Part shown: positions 3,812 to 63,562 of the stretch, in pieces
Layout of the letters: every line of letters starts with the position of its first letter
Position numbering within the stretch: position 1 is the first letter of the stretch
Assembly: GCA_052390575.1 (NCBI GenBank)
Contig: JBQTGU010000050.1
Location: 262-64,261 of the forward strand
From: Actinomycetota bacterium
GTDB lineage: Bacteria; Actinomycetota; Acidimicrobiia; IMCC26256; JACDBD01
Direction of reading: 5' to 3'
DNA length: 64,000 nt
Program-made: the position numbers and the translations under genes
Notes under the pieces: model-generated
Seen by the model: the letters and a program-made list of their open reading frames with translations, nothing else
Told to the model about the DNA's origin: nothing
Database searches by the model: none

Positions 3812-3870
3812 CGATGACTCCTCGGCCTGGGGTGCCGCGACGGTAGCCTCCCCCGTCGAGGAGGTGCGGC

Positions 3871-4866
3871 GTGCGGGCATGGCGAGTGCGCGAGCTGGGT
3901 GAGCCGGTCGACGTCCTCACCCTCGAGGACGTTCCCTCGCCGACGCCCGGTCCCGGCGAGGTGCGCCTCGACGTCGCCGCCGCGTCGCTGAACTTCCCCG
4001 ACGTGCTCCTGTGCCGGGGCGAGTACCAGGTGAAGCCGGAATTACCCTTCACCCCCGGCTCCGAGGTCGCGGGCACCATCACCGCCGTCGGCGAGGGCGT
4101 CGACACCGTGAAGGAAGGCGAGCGGGTCATCGGCATTCCCAAGTTCGGCGACGGCGGGCTGGCCGAGGAGACCCTGGCCGGGGCCGCGACCGTGTACCCG
4201 ATCCCCGACAGCCTCGACTGGCCGGCCGCGGCCGCCCTCCACATCACCTACCAGACCGGGCATCTGGCTCTGCACCGGCGCGCCGCGCTCCAACCGGGCG
4301 AGACCCTGCTCGTGCACGCCGGCGCCGGCGGCGTCGGATCGGCCGCCGTCCAGCTCGGCCGAGCTGCCGGCGCCCGCGTGTTCGCCACCGCCGGCGGGCC
4401 CGAGAAGGTGCAGGTGTGCCGCGACCTCGGGGCCGAGGTCGTCGTCGACTACCGCAGCGCTGACTTCGTGGCCGCGGTGAAGGACGCCACCGACGGCCGG
4501 GGCGCCGACGTCATCTACGACCCGGTCGGCGGCGACACCTTCGACCGATCGCGCAAGTGCGTGGCGTTCGAAGGTCGCATCCTCGTCATCGGCTTCACCG
4601 GCGGGCGCATCGCCGACGCTCCCACCAACCACGCCCTGGTCAAGAACTACGCCGTCGTGGGCGTCCACTGGGGCCTGTACAACCTCATGGAGCCGAAGCT
4701 CATCCGCGCGACCCACGACGAACTGATCCGGCTGCACGCCACCGGCGAGATCGCCCCGCTCGTCTCCCAGGTGCTGCCGCTCGAGGACGCACCCGAGGCG
4801 CTCGCCCGGCTGGCGAGCCGGGGCACCTGGGGCAAGGTCGTCTGCACCACCCGCTCTGCCGCGTGA
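3871..4866 (+). CDS. NADPH:quinone oxidoreductase / zeta-crystallin-like MDR
   Basis: N-terminus MRAWRVRELGEP, then AASLNFPDVLLCRGEYQ and the nucleotide motif HAGAGGVGSAAVQL. Confidence 0.8.
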   Translation: MRAWRVRELGEPVDVLTLEDVPSPTPGPGEVRLDVAAASLNFPDVLLCRGEYQVKPELPFTPGSEVAGTITAVGEGVDTVKEGERVIGIPKFGDGGLAEETLAGAATVYPIPDSLDWPAAAALHITYQTGHLALHRRAALQPGETLLVHAGAGGVGSAAVQLGRAAGARVFATAGGPEKVQVCRDLGAEVVVDYRSADFVAAVKDATDGRGADVIYDPVGGDTFDRSRKCVAFEGRILVIGFTGGRIADAPTNHALVKNYAVVGVHWGLYNLMEPKLIRATHDELIRLHATGEIAPLVSQVLPLEDAPEALARLASRGTWGKVVCTTRSAA

Positions 4867-33461: not shown

Positions 33462-34118
33462 TCAGCCGGTCCGCCCGACCGCAACCCCGCCGAACAGCCC
33501 TGCGTGGGTCACCGCCGCCAGGGTGTCGAGCATGGCCTCGCGGCTCACGTCCACCTGCCGGGCGAGCACGTAGTAGTTGAACCGCTCGATCATGGCGACC
33601 AGCGCCATGGCCGCGATCGCCGGATCGACGTCGCTGGTCGCGTCGGCGCGGACGCGCCGGGCGAGGGTGCGGGCGAACTCGGCCAGGAGGTCGCTCCCGA
33701 GCCGGCCGAACTCGCTGTCGCCGATCTCGGCCTCGGTCCAGGTGCGGATCACCGCGCCGTAGTGCTCGTAGAGCTCGGCGAACCGCTCGAGCCAGTCGCG
33801 CAGCTCCCGGTAGCCGGACTCGCCCGGCGCGACGCGCGGCAGCGCCTCGGCCAGGCCCGCCATCTCCTGCGCGACCTCGGTGGCCAGGGCGCGGAACAGG
33901 TCCTCCTTGTTGGCGAAGTACAGGTAGAAGGTGCCGTGCGAGGTCTTGGCGATCTTCACGACGTCGTCGACGCGGGCGGCGTGATAGCCGCGCTCGGCGA
34001 AGATCTCCGCGCCGGCGTCGAGGAGCCGACGCATCGTGCGGCGCCCGCGTGCTCGGAGCTCGCGCCCCTGCGCCGGCGTGCCGACGCGCCCGTCCACCTG
34101 CCCGTCCACTGGCGGCAT
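33462..34118 (-). CDS. TetR/AcrR family transcriptional regulator
   Basis: Helix-turn-helix region (HTH): RLLDAGAEIFAERGYHAARVDDVVKIAKTSHGTFYLYFANKEDL. The start is moved to Met48 of the track ORF. It is divergent from the MaoC/SDR genes. Confidence 0.85.
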   Translation of the reverse strand: MPPVDGQVDGRVGTPAQGRELRARGRRTMRRLLDAGAEIFAERGYHAARVDDVVKIAKTSHGTFYLYFANKEDLFRALATEVAQEMAGLAEALPRVAPGESGYRELRDWLERFAELYEHYGAVIRTWTEAEIGDSEFGRLGSDLLAEFARTLARRVRADATSDVDPAIAAMALVAMIERFNYYVLARQVDVSREAMLDTLAAVTHAGLFGGVAVGRTG

Positions 34119-34185
34119 CGCGAGCAGGCTACGGGTGGTTGACGCTCGTGTCACCTTTCGCGACGGCGACCGATACGCTCCCGCC

Positions 34186-34611
34186 ATGCCCAGCTTCGAG
34201 GATCTTTCGGTCGGGGACGAGGCCCCGCCGCTGGTGGTCGAGGACCTCTCCCGGACCAACTTCGTCCGCTACGCCGGGGCCTCGGGAGACTTCAACCCGA
34301 TGCACCACGACGACACCGTCGCCACCTCGGTCGGCAACCCGTCGGTGTTCGGCCACGGCATGCTCACCGCCGGTTTGATGGCGCGGGTGGTCAAGGACTG
34401 GTTCGGGCCCGAGGCGCTGCGTCGCTTCCAGGTGCGGTTCTCGAAGCAGGTGTGGCCGGGCGAGACGCTCACCTGCAAGGCGACCGTGACCGCCCTGCGC
34501 GACGACGACGGGACCGGCCTGGCCGACCTCGAGCTCCTCGTCGAGAACCAGGACGGCGAGCCCAAGCTCACCGGCAGCGCGACCGCCGCCGTGCCCAAGG
34601 GGGACGCCTGA
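34186..34611 (+). CDS. MaoC-like (R)-specific enoyl-CoA hydratase (hotdog fold)
   Basis: YAGASGDFNPMHHDD motif; 141 aa. Confidence 0.8.
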   Translation: MPSFEDLSVGDEAPPLVVEDLSRTNFVRYAGASGDFNPMHHDDTVATSVGNPSVFGHGMLTAGLMARVVKDWFGPEALRRFQVRFSKQVWPGETLTCKATVTALRDDDGTGLADLELLVENQDGEPKLTGSATAAVPKGDA

Positions 34612-34613
34612 CC

Positions 34614-35516
34614 GTGGGCTTGCTGGACGGGCGGGTCGCGATCGTTACCGGATCCGGCCGGGGCATCGGCCGGGAGTTCGCGCTGTGCATGGCGCGCGAG
34701 GGCGCGCGGGTCGTGGTCAACGACGTCGGCGTCGGCCTCGACGGTCGCGGCACCGACGAGGACCCTGCCGCCCAGGTCTGCAAGGAGATCGAGGCGCTCG
34801 GCAGCGAGGCCGTGCCGAACTACGACTCGGTCTCCGACTTCGAGGCGGCTGCCCACATCGTCGAGACCGCGACCGATGCCTTCGGCCACGTCGACATCCT
34901 GGTGAACAACGCCGGGATCGTGCGCGACCGGTCGCTCGTCAAGATGTCCGAGGAGGATTTCGACGCCGTGATCGGCGTCCACCTCAAGGGGAGCTTCAAC
35001 TGCGCTCGTCACGCCGCCCCGGTGATGAAGGACGCCGGGTACGGGCGCATCATCAACATCACGTCGTCCGCGGGCCTGCGGGGCAACTTCGGGCAGACGA
35101 ACTACGGCGCCGCCAAGGCCGCGCTCATGGGCCTGACGTTCATCTGGGCACTCGAGCTCGGGAAGTACGGGATCACGGTCAACGCGGTCGCACCCGCGGG
35201 CGCGACCCGCATGACCGCCGCCCTCTTCGAGCGCACCGGCAGCGAACCGCCGCCCGAACAGAACCCTGCGCTCAATGCGCCCCTGGTCGCGTTCCTGGCG
35301 TCCGAGGCCGCCGGCCATGTGAACGGGCAGATCCTGGGGCGCACCGACTACGCCTACACGCTGTTCCAGCACCCGAAGCAGATCGCGTGGATGTGGCGCG
35401 ACGGAGGGTGGGAGCCGAGCGACGTGGCCGAGAACTTCGACGCGGTGCTGGGCCAGCACCTCCAGCACGTTGGCATGGTCATGCCCAAGGGCATGGAGTA
35501 CGGCGAGAAGAAATAG
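34614..35516 (+). CDS. SDR family oxidoreductase (3-hydroxyacyl-CoA dehydrogenase-like, MFE-2 type)
   Basis: TGSGRGIGRE cofactor motif, NNAG, and the YGAAKAAL catalytic YxxxK. It starts 3 nt after the MaoC stop codon. Confidence 0.85.
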   Translation: MGLLDGRVAIVTGSGRGIGREFALCMAREGARVVVNDVGVGLDGRGTDEDPAAQVCKEIEALGSEAVPNYDSVSDFEAAAHIVETATDAFGHVDILVNNAGIVRDRSLVKMSEEDFDAVIGVHLKGSFNCARHAAPVMKDAGYGRIINITSSAGLRGNFGQTNYGAAKAALMGLTFIWALELGKYGITVNAVAPAGATRMTAALFERTGSEPPPEQNPALNAPLVAFLASEAAGHVNGQILGRTDYAYTLFQHPKQIAWMWRDGGWEPSDVAENFDAVLGQHLQHVGMVMPKGMEYGEKK

Positions 35517-35607
35517 TGCGGAGGAGCGTCCCCGTAGGGGCGGCGCCGGCCAATCTCTTCGAGGATGGCCCGGCGCCGAGCGACGGAGCCATTTGAAGGC
35601 CCGCCCC

Positions 35608-36237
35608 GTGCGGTTCGCGCTCGGCGTCGTCGACGTGGTCTACGCGCCCCGGGCGGTCGAGGAGCGCGCCCGCCTCGCCGCCGAGGACGGCTTCGCCCAC
35701 ATCGACGTCATGGTGGACGTCGATGTAGCGACATTGCCGCTCCCGGTGGGCTGCCCGACCGCCTTCCCCAAGCCCAGGCCGGGATGGTGCTCGACCCCGG
35801 CGCCGCGCGATGGCCCCGGGGTGTGGGAGCGCACGGTCGAGCTGTTCCGCAATGCGCCCGGCGCATTGCTCGAGCCGTGGGCGGGTGCGGTCGTCAACTC
35901 GGCTGAGAAGTGCCGGGCGATCATGGCGGAGGTGCCCGGGCTGCGCCTGCTGGTCGACACCGGTCACGTGGCCGACTGGGGCGGCGACCCACTCGAGCTC
36001 CTGCCCTTCGCCGGCCATGTGCAGCTCCGGCAGGGACGCCCGGGATCGACGCAGGTGCACCCGGCCGACCCGAGTGGGGTCGTCGACTTCGCCGCGGTCG
36101 TCGACCGGCTCGACGCGGTCGACTACGCCGGCGCGCTCAGCGTCGAGTACTTCGACCTGCCCGAGAACGGCTGGCCGCTGGACGATCCCCGCGGTCACGC
36201 CATCGCGCTGGCCGAGCGCGTGCGCGACGTTCTGTAG
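35608..36237 (+). CDS. Sugar phosphate isomerase/epimerase-like TIM-barrel protein
   Basis: GFAHIDV, LLVDTGHV and SVEYFD patterns resemble xylose-isomerase-like TIM barrels. The GTG start was chosen 9 nt after GAAGG. The track ORF start at 35470 overlaps the SDR gene. Confidence 0.5.
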   Translation: MRFALGVVDVVYAPRAVEERARLAAEDGFAHIDVMVDVDVATLPLPVGCPTAFPKPRPGWCSTPAPRDGPGVWERTVELFRNAPGALLEPWAGAVVNSAEKCRAIMAEVPGLRLLVDTGHVADWGGDPLELLPFAGHVQLRQGRPGSTQVHPADPSGVVDFAAVVDRLDAVDYAGALSVEYFDLPENGWPLDDPRGHAIALAERVRDVL

Positions 36238-36249
36238 TGCGCTGATCTC

Positions 36250-37248
36250 CTACGGGGGACCGAGTCCCGGCGCGTTGCCGAGGTGCACCGACGCGACCGT
36301 GCCGGCACGGGGCCGGCCGACACCTTCGTCCCCGGCGGCGAAGGATGCGTACGCCGCCTTGGTCCCGCCGTCATAGGAGTAGAAGAAGCTCAATCCGCCG
36401 ACACCGGTGCGCCCGGAGCCTTCGGCGAGCCACGGGCCACCCGGGTTCGAGCTGCACGGGCCGAGCGGCGTTCCACAGCGCGCCAGGCCGGTCGAGTAGG
36501 ACGGCGTCCACCAGTCACCGGCGGAGTAGGCGAGCAGATAGGTGTTGGTGGTCCAGTCGTAGGTCATCGACGGGTTCTCGATGAAGCGTCCTTCCCAGGC
36601 GTGGCTCTTGCCCAGCACCGGGGATGGCGGACCAGCCGGGTTCGAGTTGGCGTCGAGCGGCATCACGTAGATCGGGGTCTCGGTGTCGGCGAAGGCCATG
36701 TGCAGGTACCACTGGCCGTCGGGGCCCAGGAACAGCCCGGGGTCGAGCGCGCCGCGGTGGCCGTCGAGCCCGCAGCTGAACGGCGCGGCTTCGGGAACGT
36801 AGGGGCCGTCAGGAGCCGAGGAGAACGCTCGCCCGATGCATTGGCGATTCGGTGAGCCGTAGGGAGCCGAGAAGAACATGACGAACCCTGATGCGAACAG
36901 CCCGGCGGTGGGGGCCCAGAACGTGTCGTCGAACGCCCACGCCGGGCGCTGCGGCATCCCCTCCTTGGTGATCCCGATCCACGGAAAGAAGGAGTAGGTC
37001 TGACCGAGTGAGCTCACCGGTGTTATGGGAGCGCGGGCGGAGCCGTTCGACCCGAAGACGTAGTACAGGCCGCCGTGCGGCATCACGAACGGGTCGGCGA
37101 CCAGCGGCCACTGCGGCGGGGCAGCCGCGTGCCGGTTGATGAGGCCGAGCTTGGGCGCCACGCTCCTGCAGGCGGAGAAGAGCAGCGCGCCGACGCACAG
37201 CAGGACGACTGCTACGAAGCGAGTGCGCCGGGACGCCTTGCCGTTCAC
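36250..37248 (-). CDS. Secreted or lipoprotein beta-propeller protein, glycoside hydrolase family 43-like
   Basis: N-terminal TM/signal with LLFSAC. ADPFVMPHGGLYYVFGS, RFIENPS and LAYSAGDW resemble GH43 blades. The start is the GTG at Val148 of the track ORF. Confidence 0.55.
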   Translation of the reverse strand: MNGKASRRTRFVAVVLLCVGALLFSACRSVAPKLGLINRHAAAPPQWPLVADPFVMPHGGLYYVFGSNGSARAPITPVSSLGQTYSFFPWIGITKEGMPQRPAWAFDDTFWAPTAGLFASGFVMFFSAPYGSPNRQCIGRAFSSAPDGPYVPEAAPFSCGLDGHRGALDPGLFLGPDGQWYLHMAFADTETPIYVMPLDANSNPAGPPSPVLGKSHAWEGRFIENPSMTYDWTTNTYLLAYSAGDWWTPSYSTGLARCGTPLGPCSSNPGGPWLAEGSGRTGVGGLSFFYSYDGGTKAAYASFAAGDEGVGRPRAGTVASVHLGNAPGLGPP

Positions 37249-37253
37249 CGTCG

Positions 37254-38171
37254 CTACCGGTCGGCGGGCCACGGGGTGAGCGGCAGTCCCGGCGTCGGGA
37301 GGCCCTCCCACGCGACGACGCGGCCGGGCACGGCGTCGGTCGCGAACAATGTGCGGTTGTCGGCGCCGCCGAAGCAACAGTTGGTGGTGACCCCGTCGCC
37401 CTCGATGGTGAGGAAGTCGACCTCCTTGCCGTCGGGCGAGAGCACCCGGACGCCGTGGTCGACGGTGGCGGCGACGTAGAAGTTGCCGTCGGCGTCGAGG
37501 CAGAAGCCGTCGCCGCCGCCCGCGCCCAGCTTCTCGACGACCCATTCCTTCTCGCCGTTCGGGAGCAGCCGCTGGAGCCCGCGGCCTTCCACCACCACGA
37601 GGTTGCGGTCGCGGTCGAGCGTGATCCCGTTGCAGTAGGCGAACTGCCCCGCGATCACCTTCACGTTGCCGTCGGTCTCGTACGCCCACACCCGGCCGAG
37701 GGGCTGCTCCGGCGGCGGGTAGGGGGGCGGGTCGGTGAAGTACACGGTCCCATCCGGCGCGACCACGAGGTCGTTCGGAGCCTGGAACCCCACGTCGGCG
37801 AGGTACGAGACCGACGAGTGGTGCTCGCGCTGGGGCTCATCGGTCTTGGTATCGGCGGCTGGTTCCACGAGCTGGAGGCCCGGGGTCACCGGCCGGTAGC
37901 GAGAGTCGGTGAAGACGCCCATCTTGGCGAAGTCGGTGCCGCCGTTCTGGGTGACCACGAAGGTGCCGCCGGTGCCGAGGGCGGCGCCGTTGGGACCGCC
38001 GGCGGTGTCGGCGAGCTCCTCGAAGCGCTGCTCCTCCGGGAAGACGCGGAAGAGCTTGCCGTCGCAGACGCTCGTGACGACCAGCGTCCCGACGCCGACC
38101 GACGACTCGGGTGGGCACCACACCGGCCCCTCGCCGAACCGGATGCCACCGACCACCACTTCGGCCTGCAT
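37254..38171 (-). CDS. SMP-30/gluconolactonase/LRE family protein
   Basis: GEGPVW, NDLVVAPDGTVYFTD, YCNGI and DGFCLDADGNFYVA propeller motifs. The start is the internal ATG (MQAEVVVGG). Confidence 0.8.
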   Translation of the reverse strand: MQAEVVVGGIRFGEGPVWCPPESSVGVGTLVVTSVCDGKLFRVFPEEQRFEELADTAGGPNGAALGTGGTFVVTQNGGTDFAKMGVFTDSRYRPVTPGLQLVEPAADTKTDEPQREHHSSVSYLADVGFQAPNDLVVAPDGTVYFTDPPPYPPPEQPLGRVWAYETDGNVKVIAGQFAYCNGITLDRDRNLVVVEGRGLQRLLPNGEKEWVVEKLGAGGGDGFCLDADGNFYVAATVDHGVRVLSPDGKEVDFLTIEGDGVTTNCCFGGADNRTLFATDAVPGRVVAWEGLPTPGLPLTPWPADR

Positions 38172-38216
38172 GGCGGAAGTCTCGCGTACGCTCCCGCACG
38201 AAAGGAGGTGTCGCGT

Positions 38217-38756
38217 ATGGCACGCATCCTGGTGCTCGACCCGACCGCAGCGCCGCCCGAGGTCGACCCCGATCCCGGTCCCGACGCCGGCAATCTCGCC
38301 GGTCACACCGTAGGCATCCGCTACGACACCGCGTGGAAGTCGTTCGACTGGGTGATCGACGAGTGGATCCCTCGGCTGCGCGACGCGGGCGCCGACGTGC
38401 GCCGATGGTGCGCGGGCAACCGGATCGGCGACGAAGGCGAGCGCACCCGGGCCGAGCTCGAGTCGTTCGCCACCGACGTCGACATCGCCGTCGTCGGGCT
38501 GGGCAACTGAGGCTCCTGCACCTCCTGGAGCGTCCACGACACGGTCGCGGCCGCGAGCAGGGGGAAGGCGGCGGTCGTCGTCGTGACAGCGGAGTTCGAG
38601 CAGCTGGCCCACACCGTGGCCGCCAACGCCGGGCGGGCGGGCTTGCGCGTCCTCGCGCTGCCGTACCCGCTCGAGTCGCGCCCCGAGGCCGAGGTGCGGG
38701 AGATCGCGCGCCAGCACTGGTCTCGCCTGCTCGACGCCTTGGGCGCCGAGGCCTGA
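38217..38756 (+). CDS. Candidate selenoprotein with an in-frame TGA (codon 98, 38508-38510) in a U-G-S-C motif; 179 aa if the TGA is read through
   Basis: A strong AAGGAGG SD sequence lies 8 nt upstream of the ATG. The track ORF stops at ...VVGLGN-TGA. The same frame stays open for 81 more codons with high GC3 (GSCTSWSVHDTVAAASRGKAAVVVVTAEFEQL...ALGAEA) until the TGA at 38754. The downstream part has no start codon or RBS of its own. The next gene starts 5 nt later. Confidence 0.6.
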
Positions 38757-38760
38757 TCTC

Positions 38761-39858
38761 GTGACCGAGACCGCGCACACCCACGCCGACCGGGAGGAGT
38801 GCGGGCCCGAGGGCTGTCAGATCGACTGGCTCGCCAGCGAGCGCATCGAGGTCGACGACGACCCGGTGGCGTTCACGAAGCTGGCCACCGACGCCGGTTG
38901 GGGCGACGGTCTGCCCCTCGTCCCGCCGACCGAGGTCCGCGTGCGGGACCACGTCGCCGCGTCGGGGCGCTTTCCCGAGGAGTGCCTGGCCGAGTTGCCG
39001 CCCCGCAACGGGCGGGCGACGGTCGAGAAGGTCGCCATCAACGCGGTCATGACGGGCGCGAACGCCGAGGCCATGCCGCTGCTGTGCGCGGCGGTCGAGG
39101 CGATGGCCGACCCGGTGTTCAACCTGTTCGCGCTCAACACCACGACGTCGTGCGTCGTGCCCGGGCTGTTCGTGAACGGCCCCGCCCGCCACGAGCTGGA
39201 GATCCCCTACGAAGCCGGCTGCTTCGGCGGCGACACCGGGCCCGGTCCTGCGATCGGGCGCGCCACCCGGCTGGTCATGCGCAATGTCGCCGGTCAACGC
39301 GTCGGCGTGAGCTCGAAGAGCGTGTTCGGCCAGCCCGGCCGAATTACCGGCATCGTGGTGGGAGAGTGGGAGGAGCGCTCACCGTGGGCACCGTTGGCGG
39401 AGCGTCGGGGCGTCGCCGGCAACGCCGTCACCGTTCACGGCTGCACCGGCACCATCGACGTGGCCGACATCGTCGCCGACAACGGCGTCGACCTGCTCGA
39501 GGTGATCGGCAAATCGCTGGCGTTCCCCGGCACCAACGCGTTCATCGGCTCGCACCACGGCGCCGAGATCCTCGTCGCCCTCGCGCCGCCGTGGGCCGAG
39601 CTCATCGCGGCGCCGTACCCGGCGATCGAAGACGTCCAGGAACGGCTGTGGGCGCACGCCGCCCTCCCGGTCGCGTGGTGGCCCGAGCCCCACCGGCGCA
39701 AGGCGGAGGAGAACGGCCGCGTCGACGGCGACGGGATGGTGCACCTGGTCGAGGGCCCCGACCACATGGTCGTGATGGTCTGCGGCGGGCTGGGCAACCT
39801 CCATGCCCTCGCCCTGCACAGCTTCGGCCCTACCCGCGCGGTGACCCGGCCCTTCTAG
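38761..39858 (+). CDS. Conserved-looking hypothetical protein, translationally coupled to the candidate selenoprotein
   Basis: 365 aa with clean GC3 bias; GWGDGLPLVPPT and AINAVMTGA motifs. I cannot assign a family. Confidence 0.65.
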   Translation: MTETAHTHADREECGPEGCQIDWLASERIEVDDDPVAFTKLATDAGWGDGLPLVPPTEVRVRDHVAASGRFPEECLAELPPRNGRATVEKVAINAVMTGANAEAMPLLCAAVEAMADPVFNLFALNTTTSCVVPGLFVNGPARHELEIPYEAGCFGGDTGPGPAIGRATRLVMRNVAGQRVGVSSKSVFGQPGRITGIVVGEWEERSPWAPLAERRGVAGNAVTVHGCTGTIDVADIVADNGVDLLEVIGKSLAFPGTNAFIGSHHGAEILVALAPPWAELIAAPYPAIEDVQERLWAHAALPVAWWPEPHRRKAEENGRVDGDGMVHLVEGPDHMVVMVCGGLGNLHALALHSFGPTRAVTRPF

Positions 39859-39859
39859 C

Positions 39860-40924
39860 GTGAGCGACCCCGGCGTAGTCGTCGTCGGTACCGGGTTCGG
39901 CGCGCGCGTCCACGTGCCCGCGTTGCGCGCCGCCGGGCTCACGGTGAATGCGCTCGTCGGCCGCGACGCCGAGCGCACCCACCGTCGGGCTGAGCGCCTG
40001 GGGGTGCCGACGGCGTTCACCTCGCTCGACGAGGCGCTTGCGCACCCGGGCGTCGCGGCGGTCACGATCGCGACCCCGCCGAACAGTCATTGCGAGCTCG
40101 CGGTGACCGCCGTCGGTGCGGGCAAGCACGTCATCTGCGAGAAGCCGTTCGCGCTCGACGCCGACGAGGCGGAAGCGATGTTGCGCGCGGCCGATGCCGC
40201 CGGCGTGACTCACCTTGTAGGTCACGAGTTCCGATGGGCGACCGACCGGGCGGTCGCCGGCCGCGCCATCGCCGAGGGTGCCATCGGCGAGCCCCGCCTG
40301 GCCTCGTTCGTCCAGTGGCTGCCGTTGGTCGCCGATCCCGAGACGAAGATGCCGGCGTGGTGGTTCGACCGCGGCGCCGGCGGCGGATGGCTCGGGGCGT
40401 CCGGCTCCCACGTCGTCGACCAGGTCCGCGCCTGGCTGGGCGAGATTGCCACCGTCAACGCCGCGCTCCCACTCGCATCCGACCGACCCGCCGGCGCGGC
40501 CGAGGACTCGTTCGTCGTGCGGCTCGGCCTGGCCTCGGGTGCCGAGGCCGTGCTCCAGCAGACCGCAGGAGCATGGGGACCGTCGGTGGGCGTGACCCGT
40601 GTCGCCGGGACGCGCGGGACGGTGTGGCTCGAGGACGGCGCCGCCTGGGTCGCCGACGCGTCCGGGACGCGACCGCTGCCGGTGCCGGCGGATCTCCAGC
40701 TGCCCCCGCCTCCCGTGATCAGCGACGATGCCCGTCACCGGTTCACCCACCTCGAGCTCGGCCCGTACACGCGGCTGTGCGAGGCGCTGCGCGCCGGCGT
40801 CGCCCGTCGCCCGCTGCCTACCGCCGTGCCCCTGCCGACGTTCGTCGACGGCGTCGGGTGCATGCGCGTGCTCGACGCCATTCGGGCGTCGGCGGCAGGC
40901 GGCGGCGAGACGGTGCGGCCCTGA
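39860..40924 (+). CDS. Gfo/Idh/MocA family oxidoreductase
   Basis: N-terminal Rossmann motif VVVVGTGFGARVHVPAL and the EKP motif (ICEKPFAL). Confidence 0.85.
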   Translation: MSDPGVVVVGTGFGARVHVPALRAAGLTVNALVGRDAERTHRRAERLGVPTAFTSLDEALAHPGVAAVTIATPPNSHCELAVTAVGAGKHVICEKPFALDADEAEAMLRAADAAGVTHLVGHEFRWATDRAVAGRAIAEGAIGEPRLASFVQWLPLVADPETKMPAWWFDRGAGGGWLGASGSHVVDQVRAWLGEIATVNAALPLASDRPAGAAEDSFVVRLGLASGAEAVLQQTAGAWGPSVGVTRVAGTRGTVWLEDGAAWVADASGTRPLPVPADLQLPPPPVISDDARHRFTHLELGPYTRLCEALRAGVARRPLPTAVPLPTFVDGVGCMRVLDAIRASAAGGGETVRP

Positions 40925-40925
40925 C

Positions 40926-41531
40926 CTACCAGGCCGAGCCGTAGCGGTCGCGGTGGGCGTGCTCGGCCACGGGCTCACGGCGGGGCGGCCCCAGCGGTCG
41001 CGCCGGCCATCCGAGTGGAACGACCGCGACCGGCTCGACGTGCTCGGGAAGCCCGACGACCGCGCGCAGATCGGCGGCGAGCGCGGCCGTCAGCGTCGTG
41101 AGGGCCGAGCCCAGCCCGACGGCGTTGGCGGCCAGGAGCAGGTTCTGTAATGCCGGGAACGTCGACGACGCCACCGTCGCCGGGTGGCAGCGCGTCGTGT
41201 CGGCGCCCACGACGACCACGACTGGCGCGGCGCTGACGCCACCGGTTGCGCCCTGCTCGACGTCGGCGAACAGCTTCGGGGCGAGGCGCCCCTCCGAGTG
41301 GGCCCGCCCGCCTTCTTCCCACAGCCGGCGGGTGAGGGCGCCGATGCGCTCGCGCGTGCCGGCATCGCGCACGACCACGAACACCCACGGCTGGCTGTTC
41401 TCGGCACTGGGCGCGAACGTCGCCGCCTCCAGCACCCGCTCGACGAGGTCGTCGTCGACGGGCTCGTCGCGGAACGACCGGCACGCCCGCTGGGCCCGCA
41501 CGACCTCGAAGAACGAGGGCTCGTCGGTCAC
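40926..41531 (-). CDS. Nitroreductase family protein
   Basis: RACRSFRDEPV and APSAENSQPWVFVVV motifs. The GTG start overlaps the upstream stop codon (GTGA). Confidence 0.85.
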   Translation of the reverse strand: MTDEPSFFEVVRAQRACRSFRDEPVDDDLVERVLEAATFAPSAENSQPWVFVVVRDAGTRERIGALTRRLWEEGGRAHSEGRLAPKLFADVEQGATGGVSAAPVVVVVGADTTRCHPATVASSTFPALQNLLLAANAVGLGSALTTLTAALAADLRAVVGLPEHVEPVAVVPLGWPARPLGPPRREPVAEHAHRDRYGSAW

Positions 41532-42172
41532 GCCGGTCGTTCGCCCAGCCGGCGGAAGCTGTTGACGTACATGATTCGCAGCTCGGGTGTGTTGGCCCAT
41601 CCGTCCCACCCGGGCGTGCCCGGTTCGCCCAGGAGCGTCATGACCAGTGGCGGCATGGCCTGGAACGCGGCCTCGGGGTCCTCGGTGTCCATCTCGTAGA
41701 AGTGCATGAAGCGGGGGTCGCCGCCGCTGACGTTCTCGTAGGGCGTGATCATCGAGAACCCGGGCACGCCCACTTCGGCGATGTGGCGGATGTGCACGAA
41801 GTCGGCCCAGTCGCGGAGGGCCTGCGCCTGATTCGCCTCCCGCGGGCTGATGAGCACGAGCGACAGTCCGATGGTCGGCTTGCCGGTGAGCCGACCCTGG
41901 GCCGGACGCGGGTAGCGACGGAAGTGGTGGCCGGTCACCTCGCCCGGGGTATCGGGCGTAGTGAAGTCGTCGCCGACCTCGTACACACCGAGCCGCCCAA
42001 ACTCGGGCAGCTTGCGGGGCAGGTCGTCGCGGTCGCGGTACACGTTCTCCCACCATGTGGCCCGTTCGACGCCGGGCAGCACCAGCACTTCCGGCACCCG
42101 TTCGGCGACGTAGTCGTCGACCGCGCGATCGGTCATCTCCAGGTACAACCCAGGTGTCAGCCGGTCCTCCAC
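41528..42172 (-). CDS. Hypothetical protein
   Basis: 214 aa with good GC3 bias, sitting between the repeat element and the nitroreductase gene. The start is taken as the GTG 9 nt after GAGG; Met39 (42136) is an alternative. Confidence 0.6.
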   Translation of the reverse strand: MEDRLTPGLYLEMTDRAVDDYVAERVPEVLVLPGVERATWWENVYRDRDDLPRKLPEFGRLGVYEVGDDFTTPDTPGEVTGHHFRRYPRPAQGRLTGKPTIGLSLVLISPREANQAQALRDWADFVHIRHIAEVGVPGFSMITPYENVSGGDPRFMHFYEMDTEDPEAAFQAMPPLVMTLLGEPGTPGWDGWANTPELRIMYVNSFRRLGERPA

Positions 42173-42270
42173 CTCTACTGCCTCGCTCGCTGCGGCGCAG
42201 GGTGCCTGCGCCGCGGTCGCTCGCTCCGACGCCAAGTTCGAGCAAGACACATTGATCGTGCCGCTTGCAT
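42173..42270 (-). repeat. Intercistronic conserved element, copy A (~98 nt)
   Basis: Read on the minus strand: ATGCAAGCGGCACGATCAATGTGTCTTGCTCGAACTTGGCGTCGGAGCGAGCGACCGCGG, then the hairpin GGCGCAGG-CAC-CCTGCGCC, then GCAGCGAGCGAGGCAGTAGAG, then the GTG start. The flanks match copy B at 50/60 and 21/24 positions. Confidence 0.75.
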
Positions 42271-42281
42271 GCGCGCGGAGC

Positions 42282-43136
42282 CTACGGCTCGATGCCCAGC
42301 AGGGCGCAGGGGTTGGTGCACGCCATCGTGCGCAGCTCCTTTTCTGAGAGCCCCTCGCCGGCGAGCGTGTCGACGTACGACTGGAAGCCTTCGGCCGGCG
42401 GGACGTTCGCCTTCTGGCCGAAGTCGGTGGCGAGCGTGCAGCGCCCGACCCCGATCGTGCGCGCCGCCGCCGCCATCACCTCCGGCGGCCGGGTGGCCAG
42501 CGCGCCCAGGCACGTCAGGGCACAGAGCTCGATCGTGGCCCCGAGGTCGGCCAGCTCCACGCACTGGTCGACCGAGAGGTTCGGGCCCGCCAGCTCCTCG
42601 AGTGCGTGGGTCACGAGCGTTCGGCCGCGCTTACCGAACTCTTGTGTGACCGCGAGGTGCTCCTCCCACGTGACGTGGCCGGTGGCGAGTATCGCGCCGA
42701 ACTCCTCGACCAGATCGAGGACCTCGCGGGTCTCCGGAAGCAGCGCACCGGCGTCGTCGGTCACCGAGAGGCCGGGGCCGGGGATGCCGAGCTGGGCGCC
42801 GACCCCGTTGAGCTGGTCCTGCCGGCTCGTGAGCGTCGGCAACCACACGATCTTGGCGCCGAGGCGCAGCGCGGTCTCCACCGCGGCGGGGTTGACGCCC
42901 CCCACTTCCCGGTCGCAACAGATGCCACCGAACACACGGACGCCATGGACGACCCGGTCGACGATCGCGGCCAGCGCAGGAGTGGGGTAGTCGTGCGACT
43001 TGAGCACGACGGCTGCATGGCCGGCCTCGGCCGCGTCGCGCGCCGCTTCGAGCGCGTCGACCGAGCGCTCGCGGTGGGCGTCGGGGCCGAAGTGGCAGTG
43101 CAGGTCGGCCGCGCCGCGCAGATCGATGGTGCCCAT
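42282..43136 (-). CDS. Metal-dependent hydrolase, amidohydrolase/PHP-like
   Basis: N-terminus MGTIDLRGAADLHCHFGPD (DxHxH metal motif), then ATGHV and a late ATDFGQ motif. The start is Met32 of the track ORF. Confidence 0.65.
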   Translation of the reverse strand: MGTIDLRGAADLHCHFGPDAHRERSVDALEAARDAAEAGHAAVVLKSHDYPTPALAAIVDRVVHGVRVFGGICCDREVGGVNPAAVETALRLGAKIVWLPTLTSRQDQLNGVGAQLGIPGPGLSVTDDAGALLPETREVLDLVEEFGAILATGHVTWEEHLAVTQEFGKRGRTLVTHALEELAGPNLSVDQCVELADLGATIELCALTCLGALATRPPEVMAAAARTIGVGRCTLATDFGQKANVPPAEGFQSYVDTLAGEGLSEKELRTMACTNPCALLGIEP

Positions 43137-43249
43137 CACTATTGCCTCGCTCGCTGCGGGCCGGGCCAGCCAGAAAGGGATTGGCCGGCCCGCGACCGCT
43201 CGCTCGGACGCCAAGTTCGAGGAATGCACATCGGCCGTGCCGGTTGCAT
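43137..43249 (-). repeat. Intercistronic conserved element, copy B (~113 nt)
   Basis: Read on the minus strand: ATGCAACCGGCACGGCCGATGTGCATTCCTCGAACTTGGCGTCCGAGCGAGCGGTCGCGG, then the hairpin GGGCCGGCCA-N13-TGGCCCGGCCC, then GCAGCGAGCGAGGCAATAGTG, then the ATG start. It begins inside the dodecin stop codon. Confidence 0.75.
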
Positions 43250-43464
43250 CAGTCGTCGAGGCGGAAGCCGATTTTCATCCCGACCTGGAAGTGACCGACC
43301 TCACCATCCTTGATCCAGCCCCGGATCTCGGTCACCTCGAACCAGTCGAGGTTGCGCAGCGTCTGGCCGGCGCGCGACACGCCGTTGCGCACCGCATCCT
43401 GGATGCTGGCCTCCGACGTTCCCACGACCTCGGTGACCCGGTATGTGTGCGGAGACTCGGTCAT
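43249..43464 (-). CDS. Dodecin family flavin-binding protein
   Basis: 71 aa. YRVTEVVGTSEASIQDAVRNGVSRA...WFEV pattern typical of dodecins. Confidence 0.85.
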   Translation of the reverse strand: MTESPHTYRVTEVVGTSEASIQDAVRNGVSRAGQTLRNLDWFEVTEIRGWIKDGEVGHFQVGMKIGFRLDD

Positions 43465-43484
43465 CGATCCTCCTCGCTCGGGTT

Positions 43485-43519
43485 CGTCACGCTAATGCGC
43501 GACCACCGATAACGTGACG
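43485..43519. promoter_or_regulatory. Perfect 7-bp inverted repeat with a 21-nt spacer in the dodecin / acyl-CoA synthetase divergent region
   Basis: CGTCACG (43485-43491) and CGTGACG (43513-43519). It lies between the divergent start codons at 43464 and 43514/43523. Confidence 0.35.
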
Positions 43520-45238
43520 GGCATGTCAGCAAACCGGGTGCGGAGTGCGCCGGCGCCGGGACAGGCGCCGATGCCGGCGGCGAACGCCGCTGCGCTCCTG
43601 CGTCGGAACGCGACCGATCCCAACATTCGCGATCGTCCGGCGGTGAAGTTCGACGACGACGTGTGGACCCACGCCGAGTACGTCGCCGAGTCGACCCGCT
43701 GGGCCAACCTGTTCCTCACCCGCAAGCCGGCCGACCGCGCCCTGCACGTGGGGGTGCTGCTCGACAACGTCCCCGAGTACCTCTTCGCCCTCGGCGGCGC
43801 CGCCCTGTCGGGATCGGCGGTGGTTGGGCTCAACCACACCCGGAGGGGCGAGCATCTCCTCCGCGACATCAAGCACACCCATGTCGGCCTGATCGTCACC
43901 GCACCCGGCCACGAGGCGCTACTCGAGCCCATCGCCGACCGGCTCCCGCCCGTCCTCGTCGTGGGACCTGGCCTCGCCGGCGCGCTCGACGAACAGTCGC
44001 GCGGCGACCCCGGCCTCGAGCCCGAGCCCGACACGGTCTGGGGGCTCATCTTCACGTCGGGCACATCCGACGCGCCCAAGGCGGTGATCTGCACCCAGCG
44101 CCGGTTCATGGTCACCGGCAACCGCATGGGCATCATCATGGGCGTCGAGCCCCACGACGTCGGTTACGTGTGCATGCCGCTGTTCCACTCGAACGCCCTC
44201 ATGGTCGGGTGGGCACCCTCGATCGTCTACGGCGCGGCGGTCGGGCTCGGCCGGCGTTTCAGCGCCTCGCGGTGGCTGGGCGACGTCCGCCGCTACGGTG
44301 CGACCTGGTTCAACTACACCGGCAAGCCTCTCGCCTATCTGCTCGCGACTCCGGAGCAACCCGACGACGCCGACAACCCCCTCCGGGTCGCGTTCGGCAA
44401 CGAAGGCTCACCCGAGATCGTCGACGCGTTCGCCCGCCGATTCGACGTCGAGGTCATCGACGCCTACGGCGCCACCGAGGGGGGCGTGGCCGTCAACCGC
44501 GACGCCGAGGAACGGCCGGGCGCGCTGGGCCAGGCCGACACCGCGGTCAAGGTCGTCGACGAGGACGGCAACGAGCTGCCGCCGGCGCGCATCGATCCCG
44601 CGACCGGGCGGGTGCTCAACGCCGACGAGTGCGTCGGGGAGATCGTCAACACCGCCGGGGTCGGGCCGTTCGACGGCTACTACAACAATCCCGAGGCGAA
44701 CGAGCGCACCACCCGGTTCGGCTGGTACTGGACCGGCGACCTCGGCTATCTCGACGACGACCGCTACCTCTACTTCGCCGGGCGCACCGCCGACTGGATC
44801 CGGGTCGACGGCGAGAACTTCCTCGCGGCACCGATCGAGGCTGCGCTCGCCCGCCACCCCGACGTGGTGCTCGCGGCTGCCTACGGAGTCCCCGACGACG
44901 AGGCCGGCGACCAGGTGATGGCGGGGCTCGTGCTGCGGGACGGCAGCGCGTTCGACCCGGCCGGCTTCGCCCGCTGGCTCGACGAGCAACCCGACGTCGG
45001 CCCGAAGTGGCGGCCCCGCTACGTGCGGGTCCTGCGCGACCCGCCCACCACCGGCACCAACAAGATCGTGAAGCGGGCGCTCGTGCACCAGAAGTGGCGG
45101 GCGGATCTCGCCGGGGGCGATCCCGTCTTCGTCCGTCTCCGTGGCGACGACGACTACCGATTGTTCAGCGAAGACGACGAGCGGGCGCTGCACGACTCGT
45201 TCGTGCGCAACCAGCGCGAACGGTTCTGGGATCTCTAA
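43514..45238 (+). CDS. Acyl-CoA synthetase (AMP-forming, FadD-like)
   Basis: FTSGTSDAPKAV AMP-binding motif, YGATEGG, WYWTGDLG, and a C-terminal GTNKIVKR. The ATG at 43523 is an alternative start. Confidence 0.9.
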   Translation: MTGMSANRVRSAPAPGQAPMPAANAAALLRRNATDPNIRDRPAVKFDDDVWTHAEYVAESTRWANLFLTRKPADRALHVGVLLDNVPEYLFALGGAALSGSAVVGLNHTRRGEHLLRDIKHTHVGLIVTAPGHEALLEPIADRLPPVLVVGPGLAGALDEQSRGDPGLEPEPDTVWGLIFTSGTSDAPKAVICTQRRFMVTGNRMGIIMGVEPHDVGYVCMPLFHSNALMVGWAPSIVYGAAVGLGRRFSASRWLGDVRRYGATWFNYTGKPLAYLLATPEQPDDADNPLRVAFGNEGSPEIVDAFARRFDVEVIDAYGATEGGVAVNRDAEERPGALGQADTAVKVVDEDGNELPPARIDPATGRVLNADECVGEIVNTAGVGPFDGYYNNPEANERTTRFGWYWTGDLGYLDDDRYLYFAGRTADWIRVDGENFLAAPIEAALARHPDVVLAAAYGVPDDEAGDQVMAGLVLRDGSAFDPAGFARWLDEQPDVGPKWRPRYVRVLRDPPTTGTNKIVKRALVHQKWRADLAGGDPVFVRLRGDDDYRLFSEDDERALHDSFVRNQRERFWDL

Positions 45239-45241
45239 ACC

Positions 45242-46405
45242 GTGGACCTGAGCTTCACCGAAGAGGAGCAGGCGTTCGCGGAGGAGGTGCGCGCCTGGCT
45301 CGCCGACAACCTCGAGCTGCCGCCGCCGTTCGGCTCGCTCGACGAGGAGATCGAATGGGGCCGGGCGTGGCAGGCGAAGCTGGCCGCGGACCGCTGGGTG
45401 GGCATCCACTGGCCGGCCGAGTACGGCGGCCGGGGCGCGTCGCCGGTGCAGGTGGCGATCTTCAACATGGAGTACGCCCGCTCGCGTGCGCTCCAGCCGG
45501 TCAACCGCGTGGGCATCAACCTGGCGGGGCCGACCCTGCTGGCGCACGGCACCGAGGCGCAGAAGCAGCGGTGGCTCCCGGCGATCCTCGACGCCGGGGA
45601 GATCTGGTGCCAGCTGTTCAGCGAGCCCGGCGCCGGCTCCGACCTGGCCGCGCTGGCCACCCGGGCGGTGCCGGCCGAGGGCGGGTGGCTGCTGTCGGGC
45701 CAGAAGGTGTGGACGAGCTACGCCCGTCAGGCCCGCTGGGGCATCTGCCTGGCGCGCACCGACGCCGATGCACCCAAGCACCGTGGCATCTCGTACCTCG
45801 TCGTCGACGTGGAGGCACGGGGCATCGACGTGCGTCCGTTGGTGCAGATCACGGGCGAGGCCGAGTTCAACGAGGTGTTCCTCGACGAGGTGTTCGTACC
45901 CGAGGACCACCTCGTCGGCGAGCTCAACCAGGGCTGGGCCGTCGCCAACACCACGCTGGCGCACGAGCGCGGCACCGCCTTCCCCTTCAAGGAGCAGGTC
46001 GTGCACGAGGTCTACCTCGACGAGCTCTACGCGCTGGCGGCCGAGCGCGGAGTGCTCGACGATCCCGAGGCGTCCGATGCGCTCGCGCAGGCGTTCGTGG
46101 AGCTGCGGGTGCTCCGGTTGCACAACTGGCGCACGTTGTCGCGTCTCGCCGAAGGGATCGAGCCCGGTCCGGAGTCGAGTTGGGTGAAGCTGGCCTGGAC
46201 CGACATGACCCAGCACCTGTCGGAGAGCGCGCTGGGCGTGCTCGGCGACGCCGCGCCGCTGTGGGCGGGCGCGGCCGAGAACCCTGCCGACGGGAAGTGG
46301 CAGCGCCAGTGGCTGTGGAGCAAGGCGGCGTCGATCGCCGGCGGGACGTCCGAGGTCCAGCGCACGATCATCGGCGAGCGGCTGCTCGGTTTGCCTCGGG
46401 GATAG
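45242..46405 (+). CDS. Acyl-CoA dehydrogenase
   Basis: EPGAGSDLA and GGTSEVQRTIIGERLLGLPR motifs; 387 aa. Confidence 0.9.
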   Translation: MDLSFTEEEQAFAEEVRAWLADNLELPPPFGSLDEEIEWGRAWQAKLAADRWVGIHWPAEYGGRGASPVQVAIFNMEYARSRALQPVNRVGINLAGPTLLAHGTEAQKQRWLPAILDAGEIWCQLFSEPGAGSDLAALATRAVPAEGGWLLSGQKVWTSYARQARWGICLARTDADAPKHRGISYLVVDVEARGIDVRPLVQITGEAEFNEVFLDEVFVPEDHLVGELNQGWAVANTTLAHERGTAFPFKEQVVHEVYLDELYALAAERGVLDDPEASDALAQAFVELRVLRLHNWRTLSRLAEGIEPGPESSWVKLAWTDMTQHLSESALGVLGDAAPLWAGAAENPADGKWQRQWLWSKAASIAGGTSEVQRTIIGERLLGLPRG

Positions 46406-62383: not shown

Positions 62384-63562
62384 TCAGCCTCTCGGAAGCC
62401 CGAGCACGCGCTGGGCGATGATGTTGCGCTGGATCTCCGAGGAACCACCCGCGATCGTGCTGGCGAAGCTGACGAAGAAGCTGTGGGCCCAGCGCCCGTC
62501 TTCCTCGCTGCGGTCGGGATCGACGACCGCCCCGTACGCACCCTGGAGCTCCATCCCGAGCCCGAAGCACGCCTTCCCGAGCTCCGACGTGGCCATCTTC
62601 ATGTAGGAGTGCTCGGGCGCGGAGCTGCCCTGGGCGAAGCTGGCGAAGCCCTTGTAACCCAGCGCCCGCAGGCTGGCGGCCCGCTCGTGCAGCTCGGCCA
62701 GGCGGCGCCGCACCGCGGGGTCCTCGGCCAGCCCTCGCCGTCGGGCCAGGGCGATGAGTGACGCGACGGTGTGCTCGAGCCGGCTGACGCTCTCGACCCA
62801 GAGGCCGGCCCGTTCGTGCGCGAGCGAACCCTGGGTGATGCGCCAGCCGTCGTCGAGGCCGCCGACGAGGTTCTCGCGGGGCACGACGACGTCGGTGAAG
62901 AACACCTCGGCGAAGTTGGCCGCGCCGGTGATGTGGCGCAGCGGGCGGATCTCGATGCCGGGCGCGTCCATCTCGACGATCAGGAGGCTGATGCCCTTGT
63001 GCTTCGGGACGTCGGGGTTGGTACGGACGTAGCAGAAGCACTGCTGAGCCACCGTCGCGTAGCTCGTCCAGACCTTCTGGCCGTTGACCACGAAGTGGTC
63101 GTCGTGCACTGCGGCGCGCGTCTGGATGCCGGCGAGGTCGGAGCCGGCGTTGGGCTCGCTCATGCCGATGCACCAAATCGTGTCGCCGCGGATGGCCGCG
63201 GGCGCGAGCGTCTGCTGCGCGAGGGTGCCGAACTCGAGCAAGCTGGGGGCGACGATCGCGTACCCGGGGAAGTGCATCGAGCGGGGAATGCTCCGGCGCG
63301 CCATCTCCTCCAGGTAGACGAGGGTCTGGATCGGGGTGCAGTCCCGCCCGCCGAGCTCGGGCGGGTACGCGGGGATCATCCAGCCGTGGTCGAACAGCGT
63401 GGCCTGCCACTTGCGAGCCCACGCGGGGACGATGTCGCCCGAGCCGGTCTCGTCGGTGGCGAAGTCGCGCTGCACCAACGCCTCCGGGGGCGCGTGCTCG
63501 TCGAGGACGGCGACGAGCTCCGCCCGGAACGCCTCCTCCTCCGGGCCCCAGCCGAGCTGCAC
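62384..63562 (-). CDS. Acyl-CoA dehydrogenase
   Basis: EPNAGSDLA and GGSSEIQRNIIAQRVLGLPR motifs. The start is moved to the GTG at Val27 of the track ORF. Confidence 0.85.
   Translation of the reverse strand: MQLGWGPEEEAFRAELVAVLDEHAPPEALVQRDFATDETGSGDIVPAWARKWQATLFDHGWMIPAYPPELGGRDCTPIQTLVYLEEMARRSIPRSMHFPGYAIVAPSLLEFGTLAQQTLAPAAIRGDTIWCIGMSEPNAGSDLAGIQTRAAVHDDHFVVNGQKVWTSYATVAQQCFCYVRTNPDVPKHKGISLLIVEMDAPGIEIRPLRHITGAANFAEVFFTDVVVPRENLVGGLDDGWRITQGSLAHERAGLWVESVSRLEHTVASLIALARRRGLAEDPAVRRRLAELHERAASLRALGYKGFASFAQGSSAPEHSYMKMATSELGKACFGLGMELQGAYGAVVDPDRSEEDGRWAHSFFVSFASTIAGGSSEIQRNIIAQRVLGLPRG

Follow-up and report, generated by a model that had tools for sequence, protein, structure and literature searches.

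A UGSC-family gene of Acidimicrobiia with a predicted selenocysteine codon and an almost obligate companion gene

We analyzed a stretch of 64,000 nt from an Actinomycetota bacterium (Acidimicrobiia, IMCC26256; GenBank assembly GCA_052390575.1, contig JBQTGU010000050.1, positions 262 to 64,261 of the forward strand), referred to as the window throughout, with respect to an open reading frame (ORF) that is interrupted by a single in-frame TGA. It is highly probable that the region 38217-38756 is one gene encoding a selenoprotein of the UGSC family and that its UGA at 38508 specifies selenocysteine (Sec). This had been proposed in an earlier note, which was made from the letters of the window alone, and it is borne out by a family profile that extends across the TGA, by the alignment of the TGA with a conserved Cys, and by the presence of a TGA at the same site in the genomes of at least 118 other species. 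The frame is preceded by the motif AGGAGG upstream of its ATG and comprises 97 codons up to the TGA at 38508-38510, followed by 81 further codons up to the final stop. As the earlier note had described, the sequence across the in-frame TGA is VVGLGN-TGA-GSCTSW, which holds a U-G-S-C motif when the TGA is read as Sec, and the codon usage typical for genes of this DNA persists beyond it: GC content at third codon positions (GC3) rises from 0.90 upstream of the TGA to 0.98 downstream of it, and this signal collapses in the two alternative frames. Compared with nine relatives, the ratio of nonsynonymous to synonymous substitutions (dN/dS) is 0.20-0.41 for 78 codons after the TGA and 0.34-0.74 for 60 codons before it; eight of the nine comparisons give a lower ratio downstream than upstream. 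Moreover, all family-invariant residues after the TGA are intact in the alignment with the Cys homologs. Codon composition and purifying selection thus indicate that the codons following the TGA are translated.

TGA is the normal stop codon of 17 of the 37 confident genes in the window, and therefore the genetic code is standard. Only two TGAs in the whole window are flanked by coding signal on both sides, the one at 38508 and another at 62386 on the minus strand. The latter was considered as a second recoded codon and rejected: 62384-62386 is the stop of an acyl-CoA dehydrogenase-like gene (ending in ...GLPRG), which is followed by an in-frame GTG start (V-DFSLSPDQ...), so that two acyl-CoA dehydrogenase genes in tandem simply adjoin here.

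When the TGA is read as Cys, the translated protein matches the Pfam family PF24696 (UGSC) with residues 6-176 on profile positions 2-171 of 172 (E=1e-31; 110.8 bits at a gathering score of 25), and the alignment is continuous over the TGA. Either half of the gene alone gives a much weaker family match or none. The NCBIfam model NF041046, which the earlier note had named as "UGSC family (seleno)protein", exists under that name and also matches (72.9 bits, E=2.7e-20), with residues 79-175 on profile positions 50-146 of 147 and with omission of the N-terminal 78 residues. As this score lies below the curated cutoff of 125 bits, the window protein is related to that equivalog set and not a member by NCBI's rule, and the sub-cutoff match over the C-terminal two-thirds places it in a divergent clade made up mainly of Acidimicrobiia. 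When 5.8 billion proteins were searched, 572 homologs were obtained, the best of which have 46-55% identity and lengths of 175-190 aa. Aligned to 21 full-length Cys homologs, TGA 38508 occupies the column of the first Cys in the motif N97-C98-G99-S100-C101-T102, which is invariant, and conservation is equally strong on either side. The existence of CGSC homologs was therefore anticipated correctly, and these homologs are single polypeptides across position 98. The closest Cys-form relative found has 57% identity. Some Cys-form homologs of about 272 aa (P0013, P0030, and P0102) carry an additional N-terminal Nfu/NifU-like domain (PF01106), a hint that the family may be connected with the chemistry of Fe-S clusters or thiols.

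The TGA is not private to the window. Scanning one genome per species of GTDB for the pattern G-L-x-N-TGA-G-S-C-T-x-W gave at least 119 loci, 118 of which are true UGSC genes; among the matches listed these belong mostly to Acidimicrobiia, Dehalococcoidia/Chloroflexota, Betaproteobacteria, and Myxococcota, and the closest relatives listed are metagenome-assembled genomes (MAGs) of Acidimicrobiia with up to 79% protein identity. All 41 clade members at 55-79% identity have kept the TGA. A second assembly, Logan SRR34758882 (locus L001), shows the TGA again with one mismatch in 1865 nt, a metagenomic contig with 88% nucleotide identity (L188) has kept both TGA and frame, and so has the TGA been kept in a contig with conserved synteny to the window (L189). 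Since all three carry the TGA, it can be neither a sequencing error nor a private nonsense mutation. In each of these three assemblies the gene is annotated as two fragments, as was to be expected from the earlier note, according to which gene callers would truncate the gene or miss it. An in-frame GTG at 38583 was used by one gene caller as the start of a 57-aa fragment. Because three assemblies split the gene and its product falls below the NF041046 cutoff, Sec-form UGSC genes of Acidimicrobiia are probably systematically mis-annotated. Some genomes have two different UGSC paralogs of the Sec form, both containing a TGA, namely OZ242356.1 (L027 and L033), JACPQD01 (L017 and L020), and JANLSK01 (L060 and L079).

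A hairpin of the mRNA at 38521-38564 is likely the selenocysteine insertion sequence (SECIS) of the window gene, as predicted from covariation and from its specificity for Sec forms. Its 5' arm CCUCCUG (38521-38527) covers the codons Thr102-Ser103-Trp104 and its 3' arm CAGGGGG (38558-38564) the codons Ser114-Arg115-Gly116, which map to a variable loop after helix alpha3 in the protein model described below. The inner stems are interrupted, the apical loop is located at about 38541-38543 and hence about 30 nt from the UGA, and the hairpin can optionally be extended by pairing of 38512-38517 with 38566-38572. In the window its minimum free energy (MFE) is -31.4 kcal/mol, and only 0.45% of synonymous recodings yield the same arm-pairing geometry. 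The same hairpin recurs in the relatives of the Sec clade. As a control, we used 64 Cys-form loci with the context GLGN-C-GSCTSW (n=47, compared with n=41 for the Sec clade, at an equal GC content of 0.70). The Sec clade folds with an MFE of -29.0 kcal/mol (z=-1.44) versus -22.0 kcal/mol (z=+0.12) for the Cys forms, and the probability of pairing between the 5' arm and the sequence about 35 nt downstream of it is 0.74 versus 0.15, and 0.99 in the window; the differences are significant (Mann-Whitney P ~1e-9 to 1e-11), with the Cys controls being a different clade of at most 57% identity, so that the control for phylogeny is incomplete.

The pairing is also preserved through compensatory changes, which are seen at wobble positions. 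In a register-tolerant count, the pair at +17 is C:G 21 times, G:C 11 times, and another pair three times, and the pair at +22 is G:C 16 times and C:G 10 times, whereas both positions are mostly unpaired in the Cys forms. A covariance model (R1) built from 12 species sharing the register of the window finds a single site in the 64 kb, 38508-38573, with 85.4 bits, and it also recognizes the corresponding site of 68 Sec loci; the scores of Cys loci are 10-33 bits. Among 64 distinct Sec forms, 84.1% of the cells are paired compared to 77.6% in shuffles, and 55 cells are double-compensatory compared to 21.3, neither value being reached by any of 500 shuffles. The covariation score is 0.205, compared with 0.112 in shuffles (0 of 500) and 0.017-0.054 for slid partners, all counted on a model-fitted alignment that leans towards the structure. 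With the consensus of the Escherichia coli fdhF-type SECIS and of bSECISearch, the hairpin shares its location within the coding region about 10 nt after the UGA and the distance of about 30 nt to the apical loop. In contrast to the minimal SECIS of E. coli, it is longer (44 nt, with interrupted stems) and its loop is variable without a clear conserved G or GU, and unlike in the E. coli type, the 3' arm of the window clade shifts its register between species. Rfam, searched around the TGA at a permissive threshold, returned only noise and no matching model.

The earlier note had instead pointed to a smaller hairpin, GCUCC-N10-GGAGC, as possible part of a SECIS. The hairpin itself is present, but a role as SECIS was rejected: only 13 of the 41 relatives from the Sec clade and six of 47 Cys forms can form it, it is absent from both the MFE and the centroid fold, and it shares positions with the 5' arm of the larger hairpin, which is the conserved one. 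The coordinates of all features are given in Table 1.

Table 1. Features of the UGSC locus in the window and of the Sec-decoding genes found near a UGSC gene in another genome
Feature	Coordinates	Strand	Remarks
UGSC-family selenoprotein gene (predicted)	38217..38756	+	179 codons including Sec98; ATG at 38217; final stop TGA at 38754-38756
In-frame TGA, predicted Sec codon (Sec98) of the U-G-S-C motif	38508..38510	+	aligned with Cys of homologs
Predicted SECIS hairpin, 44 nt	38521..38564	+	begins 10 nt after the UGA; covariation, Sec-form specificity
Small hairpin GCUCC-N10-GGAGC	38512..38531	+	exists, not a conserved element
Conserved partner gene, 365 aa, uncharacterized	38761..39858	+	starts 4 nt after the UGSC stop
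SMP-30/gluconolactonase/LRE-like (SGL) gene	37254..38171	-	divergent; PF08450, E=1.2e-25
selB, Xenophilus azovorans (L007)	~864-2738	-
selA, Xenophilus azovorans (L007)	~2756-4045	-
tRNA-Sec, Xenophilus azovorans (L007)	4152-4245	-	TGA of the UGSC gene at 6726

Genes for Sec decoding were searched with tblastn (E. coli SelA, SelB, and SelD as queries) and ARAGORN, and neither a tRNA nor SelA, SelB, or SelD was found in the 64-kb window; we therefore infer Sec decoding in the source organism from conservation. Across the window and 188 fetched loci, Sec machinery was found in one locus only (L007, NZ_JQKD01000019.1), that of Xenophilus azovorans DSM 13620, where tRNA-Sec, selA, and selB lie 2.5 kb from the TGA-containing UGSC gene. 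This strain is a cultured carrier of such a gene; other cultured carriers are Paracoccus versutus with a Sec form and Sphingobium spp. with Cys forms. In another order of the Acidimicrobiia, all complete genomes of the Actinomarinales encode selA, selB, selC, and selD (bioRxiv 10.64898/2026.04.03.716425).

Several of the results have to be set against the reading as a Sec-encoding gene with its own SECIS. Besides the missing Sec machinery in the window and the score below the NF041046 cutoff, the hairpin as a single sequence is of unremarkable stability in this stretch of 74% GC (z=-1.31; 21 of 200 shuffles are as good), and 30% of synonymous recodings are equally stable (MFE z=-0.48). Furthermore, column-wise RNAalifold on a codon-register alignment of 42 Sec forms gave no consensus; this fixed-column approach fails owing to shifts of the 3' arm by 1-3 nt from one species to another. 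The predicted apical loops (ACC, GCG, ACG, or ACAC at +31 to +35) lack an invariant G. To these points add the incomplete phylogenetic control in the Cys comparison, the structure-leaning alignment behind the covariation counts, and the fact that the protein model was made for a Cys homolog with 54% identity to the window protein.

The gravest of the other explanations is that the gene is a relic, i.e., that a Sec-form gene was inherited together with its SECIS, that the Sec machinery was lost, and that the UGA now acts as a stop at codon 98 of a recent pseudogene. The lack of Sec machinery in the window and the patchy use of Sec among bacteria (PMC5029168) would fit. However, the 81 codons downstream have retained their GC3, their invariant residues, and a low dN/dS, the score of the hairpin is among the best of all loci, the near-identical and the 88%-identical copies retain TGA and frame, and the partner gene in tight linkage has remained intact, so that we regard decay of this kind as unlikely. 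Less probable again is the assumption of two small genes (97 aa plus 57 or 81 aa) or of a protein split into two chains. The ORF calls in the three independent assemblies and the in-frame GTG at 38583 favor it, and in this respect the statement of the earlier note that the continuation has neither a start codon nor a ribosome-binding site of its own holds for the latter, as no convincing one precedes 38583, but not for the former. Nevertheless, the homologs are single polypeptides with a motif that straddles the junction, the 25 codons between TGA and GTG hold the invariant G-S-C-T-x-W under strong purifying selection, and PF24696 runs through without a break, which makes two genes very improbable.

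A full-length protein would also result if the UGA was read through by a near-cognate tRNA for Trp or Cys or if a non-standard code was used, and Cys at this position would be functional, as in the Cys forms. Yet the regular use of TGA as stop in the window, the covarying hairpin at the position expected of a bacterial SECIS, and the linkage of the gene to selC-selA-selB in one genome leave little room for this explanation, which we rate slightly below that of two genes. Finally, the TGA could have arisen in an ordinary Cys gene by nonsense mutation or through a sequencing error, which requires only a single base change from TGC to TGA (the ordinary codon being TGC or TGT), and Cys-form homologs are common. 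This last explanation is effectively refuted, since the TGA is shared by the second assembly, by both related contigs, and by 41 of 41 clade members, the search gave no Cys form above 57% identity, and a hairpin specific for Sec forms accompanies it.

Directly downstream of the UGSC gene lies a gene that is probably co-transcribed with it. Its 365-aa product has no match in Pfam (E<=10), NCBIfam, or the Protein Data Bank (PDB; sequence and profile searches), but more than 2,100 homologs, all of which are designated "hypothetical" and of which the named matches are MAGs of Acidimicrobiia. This protein is an almost obligate and sometimes fused companion of UGSC. Among loci with enough DNA, 92 of 100 Sec loci and all 35 Cys loci have the partner gene as the next gene downstream in the same orientation, i.e., 127 of 135 overall, most commonly with a 4-nt overlap, and in some betaproteobacterial loci it is located directly upstream. 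Natural fusion ORFs occur in three loci (L005, L025, and L043), which retain the in-frame TGA and extend 236-460 codons past the Sec codon with an extension that is 31-35% identical to the partner of the window. Compared with the relative at locus L019, the partner is the better conserved of the two proteins (83% identity, 79% for UGSC). The AlphaFold2 (AF2) model of the partner, with a mean predicted local distance difference test (pLDDT) of 78.3 and a predicted template-modeling score (pTM) of 0.82, has no significant match among PDB folds. The only Cys conserved throughout the partner family is C154 in the motif AGCFGG, which is located in a flexible loop of low confidence. Two assignments were tried and rejected. 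A relationship to class I [4Fe-4S] fumarate hydratases reached a Foldseek probability of 0.63-0.80 but a template-modeling (TM) score of 0.26, and hhalign against E. coli FumA gave a probability of 0.2; the single broadly conserved Cys weakens this assignment further. A PurM-like fold (SelD/HypE/ThiL), with a Foldseek probability of at most 0.35 and a TM score of about 0.15, was not meaningful.

For UGSC itself, a flavodoxin-like alpha/beta fold is predicted. The AF2 model of P0001, the closest Cys homolog used for modeling, has a pLDDT of 93.2 and shows a (beta-alpha)x5 fold with a five-stranded parallel beta-sheet flanked by helices, as is typical for flavodoxin-like proteins. Foldseek against the PDB returned flavodoxin, WrbA, NQO1, MdaB, and ArsH (E ~5e-5 to 1e-3; TM 0.43-0.53; 9-19% sequence identity), whereas comparison of the UGSC profile with PDB sequences gave nothing significant. 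A thioredoxin fold was rejected on the basis of the same model, since no thioredoxin is among its top 50 PDB matches. Unlike in flavodoxin-like flavoproteins, a loop motif for binding of flavin mononucleotide (FMN) is not evident in UGSC. The conserved site is the U/CxxC motif, which in the model sits at the end of strand beta3 and in the first turn of helix alpha3, and UGSC therefore resembles a thiol/selenol redox center rather than a flavoprotein.

According to the mechanism we propose, the hairpin at 38521-38564 would recruit the complex of SelB, GTP, and Sec-tRNA(Sec) to the ribosome, as is standard in bacteria, and the UGA would be read as Sec98, yielding a protein of 179 residues. The geometry of Sec98 and Cys101 within U-G-S-C would suit a redox-active selenylsulfide. 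Because UGSC is almost always adjacent to the 365-aa protein and sometimes fused to it, it would most likely serve this partner as a subunit dedicated to redox or relay functions, and Cys154 of the partner might, speculatively, exchange with the U/CxxC pair. It is conceivable, although we would not yet count on it, that both proteins form an undescribed two-component seleno- or thiol-enzyme, in which Sec98/Cys101 reduces Cys154 or relays to it during a step in the breakdown of organic acids or small molecules and in which the partner represents a new fold family. Comparable arrangements are known from glycine reductase (GrdA/GrdB) and D-proline reductase (PrdB), where a Sec subunit of small or medium size with a UxxC-type motif is encoded beside a substrate-specific partner in catabolic clusters and acts together with it. 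The likeness of the UGSC-partner pair to these reductases is one of analogy and not of membership: PF07355 or a related Pfam was not detected in the window UGSC protein at E<=1, and the partner has no homology to Grd or Prd protein models.

The UGSC-containing protein has been listed as a selenoprotein family since 2008 (Zhang and Gladyshev, PLoS Genet, PMC2398784), so that a Sec-encoding UGA in this family is already known as a kind and will not surprise the specialist. In the GOS metagenomes, 255 Sec and 21 Cys forms with a UxxC motif were counted, and the family was among the most abundant selenoprotein families of aquatic metagenomes and enriched in non-marine samples (PMC2398784); 33 genes were later reported from 26 sequenced organisms (PMC5029168). 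A review of 2026 lists UGSC with NF041046 among families that remain functionally uncharacterized (PMC13188914), and thus UGSC has been without known function for nearly 20 years despite its environmental abundance. The window protein shares with the family of 2008 the U-G-S-C motif, the size class, and the occurrence of Sec and Cys forms. The fold differs, as a "likely Trx-like fold" was suggested there (PMC2398784), whereas the Cys homolog P0001 is modeled here as flavodoxin-like. The new leads are therefore this predicted fold and the almost obligate partner. The latter is not described in the UGSC literature that we searched; a "UGSC/Unknown_1 fusion" of 2008 may be a fusion of the same two proteins. 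The linkage to the partner, including the three fusions, offers a testable handle on UGSC function, to which the fold and the catabolic neighborhoods add. In addition, the UGSC gene can serve as a cheap marker for a Sec-decoding genome.

In the window, the UGSC gene is separated by 45 nt from the start of the divergent SGL gene, as noted earlier, and this arrangement is syntenic in 13 related loci and in L189. Both genes belong to a block at 33462-46405, also present in L189, that consists of genes for a TetR regulator, a xylose-isomerase-like TIM barrel, SMP-30/SGL, UGSC, and the partner, followed by a GFO/IDH/MocA or 2-hydroxyacid dehydrogenase, a nitroreductase, DUF6282, an acyl-CoA synthetase, and an acyl-CoA dehydrogenase. 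This block, which is conserved in related Acidimicrobiia, looks like a catabolic island. In 45 diverse loci, the neighbors of the UGSC-partner pair include TctC (seven times), family III CoA-transferase (six), short-chain dehydrogenase/reductase (SDR, four), 2-hydroxyacid dehydrogenase (four), and three each of aldehyde dehydrogenase, enoyl-CoA hydratase, and TIM-barrel isomerase, and no selenium or stress theme was found among them. The window fits this pattern, and across taxa the context of the pair points to the catabolism of small molecules or organic acids and not to stress defense. Apart from this locus, the window contains a group II intron at 128-2072 on the plus strand, recognized by Rfam RF02003 (D1-D4; 128-263, 98.5 bits) and RF00029 (domain V/VI; 1997-2072), and the ORF within it (566-1987, about 474 aa) presumably codes for the intron-encoded protein.

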